Origin: a plasmid
Direction: 5' to 3' (one strand)
Assembly: GCF_054482595.1 (NCBI RefSeq)
Contig: NZ_JBTHVH010000004.1
DNA length: 64,000 nucleotides
The first letter of the stretch is position 1; the number at the start of each line of letters is the position of its first letter. Positions 12,001 through 18,000 of the stretch are shown piece after piece. A program made the position numbers.

Positions 12001-15000
12001 TTTAATATTAACGCTTTGGTTTATGAAAATTTATCCAATTTGCTCACCGAAGACTTTTAACTTATTTAACCCCCTTTATCGCCAATCTGTGATTTTCTAA
12101 TGTTAGCCTACAGTTCTAGGGCCCTTGCTCCCATGATGCGAATCCTTCCACCTAATAAAGATTAACGCCTCATTCCTGTATGCCGGTCTTACGACGCCAG
12201 TGCACGGACAATTTTTGGTCATCACAAGGCCAGGCGGGAGATTTAATCAGGGCGTGGTGTTCCTTAGCAGCAGCTGCGGCACTGTAAGCCGAAGGCGGAA
12301 TTAACTCCTTTATCGCCATCTGGGGACGTCATTAGGGGTACCCCTTTTAACTTGCTCAGGACCATTAAGCTAAAATTCCGGATAGTGATTGACGTAAGAT
12401 TTAGGCTAAGCAGGTAAAGTGATCCCCGCTCCCGGGGTGACCACTTTATACAAAAGGCCGATCGGAAGATTGTCCTTAGGGAAATATTCCTTTAACACAG
12501 CACGGGCACTTACTGCCGCTGCCGGATTTAACCCCCTTAATCGCCAAACTGGGGTACTGTCCTGATGCTGGCCTTCAGTTCTGGGCTGGGTGGCTATCAC
12601 TTCCTCCCATAATGCGAAATGTAACTGCTGATACAGATTAACGTCATATTCCTGCGTGCCGGTCTGCCAACACCAGTGCACGGGCTTTTTTCGGTCATCA
12701 CATTACCGGGCAGGAGATTTTATCAGGGCGTGGTGTGACTGAGCAGAAGCTGGGGCACTGTCAGCAGCTTGCAGATTTAACCCCCTTAATCGCCAAACTG
12801 GGATTCTGGTCTGATATTGACCTTCCGTGCTGGGCGGGGTTCGGTTTGCTAACACTTACTCCCATGATACGAAATGTGCCTGCTGATACAGATTAAAATC
12901 ACATTACTGCATACCGGTCTGCCGACACCGGTGCATGGGCGATTTCCGACGATCTCAAGAACATATGGGAGATTATATCAGGGAGAGTAGTATGCCTGAG
13001 CAGCATCTGAAGGCACTGTCAGCCGCTGTCAGATTTAACCCCCTTAATCGCCAAACTGGTGTTCTGTCCTCATGCAGGCCTTCAGTTCTGAGCTGGGTTG
13101 CTATCACTTGCTCCCATAATGCGAAATGTACCTGCTGATACAAATTAACGTCGTATTCCTGTATGCCGGTCTGCCGACACCAGTGCTCGGGCTATTTTCG
13201 GTCCTAACAAGACCTGGCGAGAGATTTAATCAGGGCGTGGTGTGACTGAGCAGCAGCTGGGGCACTGTTATCCGCTTGCAGATTTAACCCCCTTAATCGC
13301 CACACTGGGGTTCAGTCCTGATAGTGTCCTTCCGTCCTGGGCTCGGTTGCTAACACTTGCTCCCATTGCGCCTGCTGATACAGATTAAAGTCACATTACT
13401 GCATACCGATCTGCCGACTCCGGTGCATGGCTTTTTCCGATAATCACAAGGACGGACGGGTGATTTTATCGTTGCATAGTATGTCTGAGCAGCATCAGAA
13501 GGCTCTGTCAGCCACTGGCAGATTTAACCCCCTTAATCTCCAAACTGGGATCAGTCCTGATAGTGTCCTTCCGTCCTGGGCAGGGTTGCTAACACTTGCT
13601 CCCATGATACGAAATGCGCCAGCTGATACAGATTAACGTCTCATTACTCCATGCCGGTCTGCCGAAACTGGTGCATAGCTTTTTTCGATATTCGCATGAA
13701 CAGACGCTTGATTTTTTCAGGTTGTAATATACCTGAGCAGCATCTGAAGGCACTTTCAGTCGCTGTCAGATTTAACCCCCTTAATCGCCAATCTGGGATT
13801 TTCTGATGTTAACCTACAGTTCAAGGCCCTTGCTCCCATGATGCGAACCTTGCAACCTGATAAAGATTTAAGCTTCATTCCTGTATGCCGGTCTTACGAC
13901 TCTAGTGCACGGGGACTATTTTCGGTCATAATAAGACCTGGCGGGAGATTTAATCAGGCGTGGTGTGACTGAGCAGAAGCTGGGGCACTGTCAGCCGCTG
14001 GCAGATTAAAACCCTTTATTCGCCATCTCAAGACGTCATTATGGGTAGTCCTTTTAACTTTCTAAGGACCATTAAGCTTAAACTCCGTTTAGAGAATGAC
14101 GTAAGATTTAGGCTAAGCAGGTTAAGTGATCCCCGCTCCCGGGTTGAACACTTTATTCATCGTACGAGCGAAAGATTGTCCTTCGGGAAATATTTCTTAT
14201 ACACCGCTCGGGCACTTACAGCCACTGGCGGATTTAACCCCCTTAATCGCCAAACTGGGGTACTGTCCTGATGCTGGCCTTCAGTTCTGGGCTGGGTGGC
14301 TATCACTTGCTCCCCTAATGCGAAATGTGTCTGTTAATACAGATTAACGTCATTTTCCTGCGTGCCGGTCTGCCGACACCAGTGCACGGCCTTTTTTCGG
14401 TCATTACATTACCGGGCAGGAGATTTTATCAGGGCGTGGTGTTACTGAGCAGGAGCTGGGGCACTATCAGCAGCTTGCATATTTAACTCCCTTAATCGCC
14501 AAACTGGTGTTCTGTCCTCATGCTGGCCTTCAGTTCTGGGCTGGGTTGCTATCTCTTGCTCCCATAATGCGAAATGTATCTGCTGATACAGATTAACGTC
14601 ATATTCCTGTATGCCGGTCTGCCGACACCAGTGCTTGGGCTATTTTCGGTCATAACAAGACCTGGCGAGAGATTTACTCAGGGCGTGGTGTGACTGAGCA
14701 GCAGCTGGGGCACTGTCATCCGCTTGCAAATTTAACCCCCTTAATCGCCAAACTTGGGTTTTGTCCTGATGCTGGCCTTCCGTTCTGGGCGGGGTTGCTA
14801 TCACTTGCTCCCATCATGCGAAAAGTGCCTGCTGATACAGATTAACGTCATATTCCTTCATGCCGGTCTGCCGACACAAATGCACGGGCTTTTTTCGGTC
14901 CTTACAATACCGGGCAGGAGATTTAATCAGGGCGTGGTGTGACTGAGCAGCAGCTAGGACACTGTCAGCCGCTGGCAGATTTAACCCCCTTAATCGCCAC

Positions 15001-18000
15001 ACTGGGGTTGCCTCCTGAAGTTGGGTTTCAGTTCTGGGCTAGGTTGCTAACTCTGCTCCCATAATTCGTAGTGGGCCTACTCAAGAGATTAACACCTCAT
15101 ATCTTTAGACTGGACTGACGACAACGATTCACAGTTAGGAAACGTAAATCAGCACACCGGTGAGATAGATTTTAGGGTCTAAGCAAGAAATAGGGTAGGC
15201 GTGAAGATTCATTAATGGAGCTCATAACGTCAAAGCGTAGAGAAGTCGACAAGAATCGTGGTTTAAAAAGAATGAGCATTAGGTATGGACTAGAGAGTCT
15301 GAGCTCTCATCTGCAAGTTAAGCTCACAAAAAATCATAAAAAAGTAAACAAACATTAGCTTAGGATTGAAACAAAGGATAGAATTGTACGTATAACAATG
15401 AAATGGACGCATTATGCGTAAAGTTTACATATATGCGTAAAAGTCGGTTTTCAGTGCAAAAAGGTCATAACCATGAATTTACTTGAAAAGATCGCCCTCG
15501 TTGGTCAGCGCATGAAAAGCGAGCAGATTTCTCTTAAGGAATCTCTGATGGCTTCATCAAGAGTATCTGTTTCTGATGATAGTGTTGATGGTGTTGATAG
15601 ACTGATCTACAACCACTGTTTAAATAAAAAAAATCTCTCTGATTTTTTTGGGAAGTCACGAGTAACGTTCAATAAAATACTTTCGGACTTAGAAGAAAAA
15701 GAAGTTGTTGGTGCACCTATTTATCAAAACAAAAATCATCTTTACACCCGCTGGGATGTTCAAAAAATAATGGATGCCCTGGGTTATCCCAAGTACCGCG
15801 ATCATTACTTTAGCAGAGCTATTGTTACTCAGAATCATAAAGGCGGTACAGGGAAAAGCACTACATCTGTAGCTTTAGCAGTAGCAGCTGCTTTAGATCT
15901 ACAACTGAATGCACGTGTATTAATGATCGAATGGGACCCACAAGGTTCGATTGGAAGCAGCATGATTCAAAGTGTCTCAGAAGATGATGTCTTCCTTACA
16001 GCAATTGATGCAATCCTTGGAATTTATGAAGAAAATTCTGAGTATAAAAAATATTTAGATTCAGGATTCTCTGAAGAAGAAATCATCACTAATATGCCTT
16101 TTTCAACGCATCTGCCAAACTTGGACGTGATAACGGCATTTCCGACAGATGCTCGTTTTAAAGATAAATACTGGCAATGTTCTAGAGAAGAACGAACGTC
16201 TTTGTTACTACGTTTCAAGGAAGTTATCTTACCGGTACTGAAGCAGAACTATGATTTGATTATTATAGACACTCCACCTGAAGATTCACCTTTGATCTGG
16301 GCTGCTGACGAAGCGGCCGATGGGATTCTTGTCGCAGTGTCACCACGTGAATATGATTACGCCTCTACTACAGACTTCATGCTTACAATAAGTGAAAGGT
16401 TTAAACAATCACCAAGTAAGGGCGATAATTTAAAATGGTTCAAAGTTCTTGCTGTCAATGTTGATGACAAAAGTCCATATGAAAGAATAGTTTTGGATAA
16501 ATTAATCAGAACTGTTCAGGACCTTTTGATGTCCGCTAACATAAAAAATTCTGAAGCATTTAAGGCAGCTGCTTCCAAAGGGCGTACAGTGCTTGATATC
16601 AAAAAATCAGAGGAACTTTGTTCCGCAAAGCAACTTGATGTCGCAGAAGAATCTGTATTACAGGTATATCAACAATTTATAAATGAAATAAAAAGTTTTT
16701 CAGCTAAGCAAGGAGTTAACGCATGAGCGATGAGCAACATATCGGGAATGATAAATCTCGATATTTAAACGCACCAAAGCGGACAGAAGTCGGTCACCGT
16801 TCAGGTCTTGCGGGTTTGAAAACAGCACCTCGCATAAAAAAGTTATTCACTCTTCATAAGGGCCGAAGACTTGAAGCGGAACATGTGATTGTTCCAGCCC
16901 AGAGAGTGGAGAAGGAGACCTTAGTCCATCCAGCAAACCCACGAAATCAAGAAGCCCTTACAGATTATTCTGTTAGAGATATTCTTAAGCAGATTGAAGA
17001 AAGAGGGGTCGATACCGAAGGGATCGCTGTAAAAAGAGATGGGGTTTATTTATTAATAGAAGGAAGTCGCAGACGTTTCTGCTGTATAAAGGCAGAAAAG
17101 GATCTCCCCCTGTGGGTACTACCGGATGAACTAACCGAAGATGATATAAATTCAATTATATCCGCAGCACAAACATCTCGAAAATTTTCATATAGAGAAG
17201 TTGGGTTTCAATTTATCAAGAAAATGGAAGAAAAGGGATTTTCTACTAATGAAGAACTCGCAGCATATCTTGGGATTAGTCATGTATCGGTAGCCAAAAG
17301 AATCCAGGCGGCACGTATTGACGAAACATTGATCTCTTTATTCCCGGATTATGAAGGAATACCGAACTCCTATTATAGTCGCTTGTCTCGTTTACAGAAA
17401 TATGTGCAAAAAAATCTATTTCCTTTAGATGAAGTAATAGATAATGTTAAAGAGGAAACAAAAGATTTAGACATTGGAGATCTCCAAGTTGCCCAAAAAG
17501 TTGTAATGGAGAAAATCACACAATCTGTGGAAAGTGTTTGTGAAAAATCTTATTCCACAAAATGGGAAACAAGTGATCTTATTACTTTTGATAACAAAGA
17601 TAAGTATGCAAGAATCAGTAAAAACAATACTGGAAGAAAAATTCGCATTGAATTCAATAGGATAAGTGCGGGTTTTATTAAGGAGCTAGAGGAGTTCATA
17701 AAAGAAAAATTAAAAGTATCAGAATAAATATTGAACTGCATCTTTATGATGCAGTTCATATGATTTATATTTTTAATTTCTTGTTATATTAATATGGGGT
17801 GTGCGCAGGTTCAGACATATAAGGTCTTAGTTCTATATGAACAGAAGCGCCATTCCCATCATTTACTACGTTTAAAGGTGCTTTGCCCGGCAATGACATA
17901 GTTGCAACGTCAGGTCCAGAAACAGCAAAATTATTTTCTGCTGAAGGCATTACTGTAAAAATCTTTATAGCAACATTTTCATGTCTAAATAAAGAAATCC

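Follow-up and report, generated by a model that had tools for sequence, protein, structure and literature searches.

We analyzed a 64-kb stretch of plasmid DNA (contig NZ_JBTHVH010000004.1 of assembly GCF_054482595.1; hereafter the window) and conclude that the tandem array filling the gap from trhC to the type Ia parA-parB operon is very probably the parS centromere of the IncHI2 partition system (IncHI Par1) encoded just downstream. As predicted from sequence, this centromere most likely consists of thirteen 21-bp ParB sites at an unusual spacing of about 249 bp, and the long unit body between them is most likely filler without sign of a function of its own. We regard the 21-bp core as centromere-like because it is linked to parAB across plasmid backbones, keeps its orientation while its spacer varies freely, and covaries with the DNA-binding segments of ParB. 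The analysis adds the 21-bp site, a P1-like reading of it and the interpretation of the long unit as filler; the centromere call itself was to be expected. A full-text literature search for the core sequence found no papers.

Organization of the array

The array (12063-15130, plus strand) was delineated by Tandem Repeats Finder (TRF), unit alignment and an identity matrix, and comprises 12 full units followed by one cut to 153 bp, all in a single orientation pointing to parA. TRF reported one array in the window (12515-15093; period 249, 10.5 copies, 71% matches, score 1764) and no second tandem repeat with a score of at least 50, confirming the array and the period that an earlier note on this DNA had proposed to check in this way. 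The 13 unit heads listed in that note, the first at 12063/12064, were all recovered by sequence reading and unit alignment, with spacings of 233, 228, 249, 258, 249, 240, 248, 235, 227, 249, 249 and 249 bp; the period is accordingly about 249 bp with a range of 227-258 bp. Base composition also sets the array apart, at 49.5% G+C between AT-rich flanks (28.6% and 36.8%).

The 28-mer described as opening each unit is indeed exact in 4 units and present with 1-2 mismatches in 6 more, and a shorter 21-nt core (ATTTAACCCCCTTAATCGCCA) is exact in 8/13 units and carries 1 mismatch in 3/13. The exact copies found by core scan, all on the plus strand like the remaining sites, lie at 12526-12546, 12775-12795, 13033-13053, 13282-13302, 13770-13790, 14232-14252, 14730-14750 and, in the last, truncated unit, 14979-14999. 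Single mismatches occur in the first site (12064-12084, ATTTAACCCCCTTTATCGCCA), at 13522-13542, where the change falls in the box-B part of the core (TCTCCA), and at 14481-14501. The other two sites are degenerate cores of divergent units—one at 12298-12318 (GAATTAACTCCTTTATCGCCA), identified by sequence reading, with a degraded left half, and one at 14005-14025 (ATTAAAACCCTTTATTCGCCA), found by core scan with 4 mismatches—and both keep the hexamer TCGCCA. The core is asymmetric, its reverse complement being TGGCGATTAAGGGGGTTAAAT, and is self-complementary only in TTAA tetramers. No copy with up to 5 mismatches was found outside the array anywhere in the window, including the region downstream of parB.

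Subfamilies of units, which the earlier note had put at two or more besides a divergent type, are real and number four in the identity matrix. The largest comprises the units starting at 12525, 13032, 14231, 14480 and 14729 (identity 87-95%), followed by those at 12774, 13281 and 13521 (80-81%) and the pair at 12064 and 13769 (86%). The divergent type, represented by the units at 12297 and 14004, shows 83% mutual identity, about 55% identity to other units and lengths of 227-228 bp, and retains little beyond TTTAT(T)CGCCA. A higher-order arrangement is likewise present, with the unit triplet at 12064-12773 repeated at 13769-14479 with 88% identity.

The core in related partition loci

For comparison, parAB loci were retrieved that encode a ParB with 72-74% identity to the IncHI2 protein. 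Every one of these loci carries the exact 21-mer in tandem directly 5' of parA, at short periods: about 30 core copies with a period of 52/54 bp in the IncHI1 plasmid pMAK1, 11 copies at 54 bp in a K. grimontii plasmid, and 7 copies at 56 bp in Kluyvera pKATP1, which has a non-IncHI backbone and no trhC adjoining its array. Kluyvera-type plasmids additionally have a solitary inverted core about 3.9 kb from the array (at 3294 (-), 4067 and 5033 of three fetched loci), possibly a dispersed secondary parS.

A wider scan for exact matches to the core 19-mer, with one genome per species, returned 26 stretches, all from Enterobacterales except one Streptomyces contig. That contig, from Streptomyces cahuitamycinicus (381 bp, coverage 0.86), holds a single exact core and is probably contamination by an enterobacterial plasmid. 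The same scan showed a core period of 54-56 bp in Pseudocitrobacter, Pantoea, Lelliottia, Scandinavium, Kluyvera and Serratia, and of 43 bp in Buttiauxella, whose ParB is 66% identical to the IncHI2 protein. A 249-bp period was seen only where the fetched flank has IncHI2 ParB or TrhC (99-100% identity). Wherever parA falls inside the fetched locus, the array immediately precedes it and points the same way (ParA 83-99.8%, ParB 66-99% identity).

What these loci share is narrow. Spacers are unrelated between lineages, which have in common no more than the core with some 18 nt on its 5' side, and the relatives of IncHI2 carry the same core with spacers of 22-35 bp. No homologue of the IncHI2 unit body was found in IncHI1 or in other trhC-parA gaps, and across all PLSDB plasmids the body is confined to the IncHI2 set.

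In more distant relatives (ParB identity 48-55%), parAB is accompanied by a related core particular to each lineage, in 1 to 23 copies. The plasmid pKP059 of K. pneumoniae carries the core GTGAAAACAACCCCGTTGTTCGCAG in 23 copies at 66 bp, with 3 more copies after parB; Serratia symbiotica has GGTAAACACCCCCTGTTTGCCCA in 3.6 copies at 38 bp; and Providencia has a single GTGAAAACAACCCCCTTGTTCGCCA in a 215-bp gap before parA. In an alignment of the ParB proteins, the recognition helix (SHVSVAKR) and a C-terminal loop (NKDKYARISK) are conserved among ParBs that share the core, and the same helix and loop are changed in exactly these three lineages. The 66-bp array of pKP059 is interrupted by ISKpn34 (3986-5505, 6755-6913), its three copies downstream of parB lie at 10194-10349, and its parAB locus is flanked by several genes for proteins with Ig-like domains.

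Constraint within the unit and alternative explanations

To measure constraint along the unit, we took four IncHI2 lineages, combined their canonical units into a set of 30 distinct ones, built a neighbor-joining tree and counted Fitch changes per alignment column. The 21-nt head averaged 0.33 changes per column versus 1.14 in the body, about 3.4-fold fewer (Poisson P=5e-5). Within the body, the columns fit a single uniform rate (dispersion index 1.14, p=0.08) and the best-conserved 10-nt windows were no better than column permutations (P=0.77), although the units are related by gene conversion and a weak constraint on the body would escape this test. The further conserved blocks that the earlier note had pointed out are thus no more conserved than the body overall, and as candidates for extra constrained boxes they are indistinguishable from uniform drift; they look conserved because the units are young copies. 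That note had also argued that several separate boxes make the unit more than a simple ParB site can explain. By our analysis extra constraint is detectable only in the 21-bp head, and it is the head alone that is shared with relatives at periods of 43-56 bp.

These results bear most directly on a composite centromere, an explanation we consider unlikely, in which the body would hold further functional sites (A-boxes of low affinity, for example GATTAAC and GATTTAAT, or a place where a host factor bends the DNA) or impose a required spacing, and the array would be an iterated, P1-like multi-box parS. P1 parS itself consists of several A and B boxes plus a site for integration host factor (IHF), some blocks of the IncHI2 body reach 95-98% majority-base conservation, even the strongly divergent units (about 55% identity) keep their 227-228 bp length, and the period of about 249 bp is held in all IncHI2 lineages examined. 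Set against this are the single Poisson rate and the permutation result for the body, its lack of a homologue in IncHI1 and other relatives with their 22-35 bp spacers, and the lack of any exact match to the IHF consensus (WATCAANNNNTTR) within 12064-15130. One-mismatch A-box heptamers are moreover expected by chance at a calculated rate of about 0.7 per unit.

Linkage of the core to parAB likewise bears on a second alternative, which we regard as very improbable, namely that a replication initiator, and not ParB, reads the repeats, which would then be iterons or an element for copy-number control or incompatibility. Iterons, too, are typically direct repeats of about 20 bp arranged in tandem and in a single orientation, several iteron-type replicons occur on IncHI plasmids, and the RepFIA-like replicon of R27 requires its incC repeats for stability (PMC4853401). 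Those incC repeats are however RepFIA iterons at a different locus. The IncHI2 array has trhC and parA, not a rep gene, as its neighbors, and its core is absent from the rest of the window, accompanies parAB on different backbones in plasmids of Kluyvera, Providencia, Serratia and Klebsiella, and covaries with the DNA-binding segments of ParB.

A third alternative, hardly credible, is that the array is what is left of a repeat-protein gene, or a series of small transcription units (small RNAs or peptides) ending at a hairpin and T-run. It is true that 249 is divisible by 3, that one frame of the consensus unit stays open on the minus strand, that some annotators call small open reading frames (ORFs) here, and that a GC-rich imperfect inverted repeat followed by T's is found in most units, but the coding and transcription signals in the array are null throughout. 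Stop codons interrupt every one of the six frames in each of the 30 distinct units, the mod-3 test shows no excess of third-position substitutions, and Pfam searches of the array translations gave nothing above cut-off, so that a coding repeat was rejected by six-frame translation, stop census, mod-3 test and Pfam scan alike. The suggestion that the ORFs in the array are the repeat read in frame is borne out. Deposited annotations place up to 11 small 'hypothetical protein' ORFs in the array (MF344581.1 3049-6513; another fetched locus 5586-5747), and such ORFs are spurious read-throughs of the repeat.

As regards transcripts, the inverted repeat and T-run noted earlier do exist in most units, but a terminator pattern is present in only 2. 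Terminator-like sites in the array region (5 versus a shuffle expectation of 4.0) are not enriched, promoter-like sites (3 versus 6.0 in shuffles) are fewer than expected, an Rfam search of the array gave no match at E up to 1, and RNA folding gave z-scores of -0.13 and +0.92, with no structure signal. Unit-length transcripts ending at the hairpin, as the earlier note had envisaged, therefore find no support from the promoter and terminator scan, Rfam or RNA folding, and small RNA or terminator units were rejected on the same three grounds.

Partition genes and a candidate mode of recognition

The array begins downstream of the TraC/TrhC ATPase gene (8955-11636), and its position directly upstream of a type Ia parAB operon, as first read from the sequence, is confirmed by Pfam matches for both proteins. 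The parA gene (15473-16726, plus strand) encodes a type Ia Walker ATPase of 417 amino acids (Pfam AAA_31/CbiA) with an N-terminal extension of about 110 residues and a Walker A motif from about residue 122; it matches P1 ParA at 25% identity (E=3e-17), in an alignment starting at residue 62. The parB gene (16723-17727, plus strand) encodes a 334-residue protein of the P1-ParB family with a ParB-type arginine patch (GSRRR at 114-118, aligned with the GSRRR of P1), a helix-turn-helix (HTH) and a C-terminal dimer or box-B domain (PF08775, E=3.8e-11). Over its full length it is 28% identical to P1 ParB (E=4e-31), and residues 150-330, spanning the HTH and the C-terminal dimer domain, align to the P1 ParB(142-333)-DNA structures 1ZX4 and 2NTZ (E=3.6e-16). 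In NCBIfam the protein scores well under every equivalog cut-off, with the sole plasmid ParB equivalog model matched (NF010252/PRK13698) giving 48 bits against a cut-off of 274, and it therefore forms a separate subfamily.

Between the array and parA lies a putative par promoter-operator (15400-15445, plus strand), marked by the palindrome ACGCATTATGCGT at 15407-15419 and the direct repeat TATGCGTAAA at 15413-15422 and 15432-15441. Motifs resembling ACGCAT/ATGCGT are also found 5' of parA in IncHI1 (fetched locus 9964-10009) and Kluyvera (about 7660-7720), and judging by these motifs the segment is likely the operator for ParA autoregulation.

The core itself bears some resemblance to the P1 site. 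In the annotated P1 record, box B is TCGCCA (twice) and box A reads ATTTCAC, ATTTCAA or GTGAAAT, while the annotated P7 record gives box B as TTCCCA/GTCCCG. The hexamer at the right end of the IncHI2 core, TCGCCA, is exactly that of P1 box B, and the heptamer at its left end, ATTTAAC, differs from the box A ATTTCAC at one position; the core is colinear with A2-A3-B2 of P1, with 13 identical positions and one gap (12/21 columns scored after the gap penalty). According to a review (PMC5016525), P1 ParB recognizes the heptamer of box A through its HTH and the hexamer of box B through loops in its dimer domain; the same review describes iterons of such centromeres as having motif flanks that are not conserved, with one copy usually enough.

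By extension from P1, a ParB dimer would read each IncHI2 core through two modules, the HTH on the box-A-like left part (ATTTAAC) and the C-terminal loops on TCGCCA. Thirteen such sites over 3.1 kb could load many ParB molecules into a large partition complex, which ParA-ATP would then move on the nucleoid, with ParA repressing the operon at the palindrome and direct repeats described above. The roughly 228 bp between sites would be lineage-specific filler, co-amplified with the core and drifting neutrally, and unequal recombination would change the copy number and unit order of the array. The long spacer may have arisen when about 190-230 bp of unrelated DNA joined one unit, which then took over the array. 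A role of the array in incompatibility, as the earlier note entertained, is plausible.

A second partition module lies further downstream in the window (20833-22547), consisting of a ParM gene (20833-21870; PF06406/PF21523) followed by an ORF of 221 amino acids. The ORF has no Pfam or NCBIfam match and presumably encodes ParR. The 363-bp gap 5' of parM shows weak short repeats only, with no obvious parC site. In R27, Par1 is the major and Par2 the minor stability determinant, according to secondary sources (PMC4489591).

Natural variation and observations that weigh against the centromere

The trhC-parA region was matched in 1129 PLSDB records, 533 of them at 99% identity or higher, and the unit body in 1128 records, usually with 10-14 copies each. 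Record CP169086.1 of E. hormaechei B17-3 is labelled chromosome and contains the IncHI2 trhC-array-parA region; it may be an integrated IncHI2 plasmid. The comparison of copy number and unit order across IncHI plasmids that the earlier note had advised gave 13 to 15 units in the IncHI2 lineages examined, with varying order and an unchanged period, against the approximately 30 short-period copies of IncHI1 pMAK1.

Besides the limited reach of the parsimony test for weak constraint, several observations weigh against the reading of the array as a P1-like iterated centromere. The IncHI2 plasmid pS802-MCR (NZ_MW495059.1) is without any array: between the end of trhC and a point some 35 bp short of the parA start codon (ATG), the sequence is swapped for about 4.3 kb of GC-rich DNA holding 8 hypothetical genes (7038-11374 of the fetched locus), a replacement that also removes the par promoter/operator, and the core is absent from the 14-kb locus. 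Another plasmid, pSH111_227 (NC_019114.1), has three heads only—the first unit, a divergent unit and the last truncated unit—in a trhC-parA gap of 1383 bp (3136-4518 of the fetched locus), either because ten units were lost by head-to-head recombination or because the repeat collapsed in an older assembly. These two plasmids suggest that many copies, or even Par1 as a whole, are dispensable, at least beside a second partition system, and the apparent loss of copies or of Par1 fits the presence of the ParM system.

The likeness to P1 has weak points of its own. Local alignment of the core with P1 parS is barely better than with shuffles (P=0.04), for which reason we treat the similarity as a lead and not as proof, and the box-A likeness is weak, with its one mismatch and with a left half that is variable among relatives. 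The layout differs as well: in P1 a single composite parS, about 80 bp in size, follows parB, its two arms separated by an IHF site, whereas the IncHI2 site is upstream of parA, iterated as 13 single 21-bp cores, and without an IHF consensus.

Implications for IncHI plasmids

IncHI2 plasmids rank among the major carriers of resistance genes, mcr-1 and mcr-9 included, and the 21-bp site offers a concrete target for work on ParB binding, curing and incompatibility. For annotation, the array suggests a simple rule, namely to drop the spurious small ORFs inside it. Across lineages, one site recurs whose period is 43, 54-56 or 249 bp and whose copy number runs from 1 to about 30, a natural series that could be used to study the effects of site number and spacing on ParB loading and complex size.

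A bolder interpretation, which we hold to be rather doubtful, is that the 21-bp core shared by IncHI1, IncHI2 and non-IncHI lineages (ParBs 66-74% identical) defines one partition-incompatibility network, and that the stretching to 249 bp, which every IncHI2 lineage examined and even the units with about 55% identity have retained, is adaptive and not neutral filler. If true, the wide spacing might give a larger or differently organized ParB complex on a plasmid of 200-300 kb, or less interference from co-resident plasmids with the same site.

Comparison with known partition systems

Among known systems, P1 and P7 are close in components, through homologous ParB proteins with an HTH, a PF08775 domain and GSRRR, through an asymmetric site, and through a type Ia ParA with an operator (putative in IncHI2) beside the promoter. 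Protein identity to P1 is nevertheless only 25-28%, and NCBIfam scores fall far under the equivalog cut-offs.

The layout resembles that of F sopC, a same-orientation tandem array with one site per unit beside a type Ia operon. F sopC consists of 12 tandem 43-bp repeats bound by SopB, and the Buttiauxella relative of the IncHI2 array shares the 43-bp period. The differences are substantial: the binding site in sopC is palindromic (an inverted repeat of 16 bp) whereas the IncHI2 core is not, the sopC array follows sopB whereas the IncHI2 array is upstream of parA, the IncHI2 period is about six times longer, and the IncHI2 ParB is P1-type, with P1 ParB and not a SopB-type protein as its best solved relative. 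The array thus lacks the features both of P1par parS (a single, IHF-bent site downstream of parB) and of sopC (a palindromic site and SopB). Of the sopC-like centromere suggested in the earlier note, the centromere stands, since a core shared upstream of homologous parAB and its covariation with ParB make this the best reading of the array; the resemblance to sopC extends to the tandem layout only.

A further close counterpart is Par1 of the IncHI1 plasmid R27 (parA R0020, parB R0019), which is orthologous, with a 72% identical ParB, the same trhC-array-parA-parB order and the same 21-mer. In R27-type plasmids the gap holds about 30 copies with a period of 52/54 bp along with additional non-repeat DNA, and R27 Par1 has no counterpart of the IncHI2 unit body (about 228 bp). 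The function of Par1 was reportedly tested on R27 by Lawley and Taylor in 2003. The IncHI2 array is orthologous to the cis region of R27 Par1 and would work like a sopC-style iterated centromere that combines a P1-type protein with a P1-like asymmetric site.

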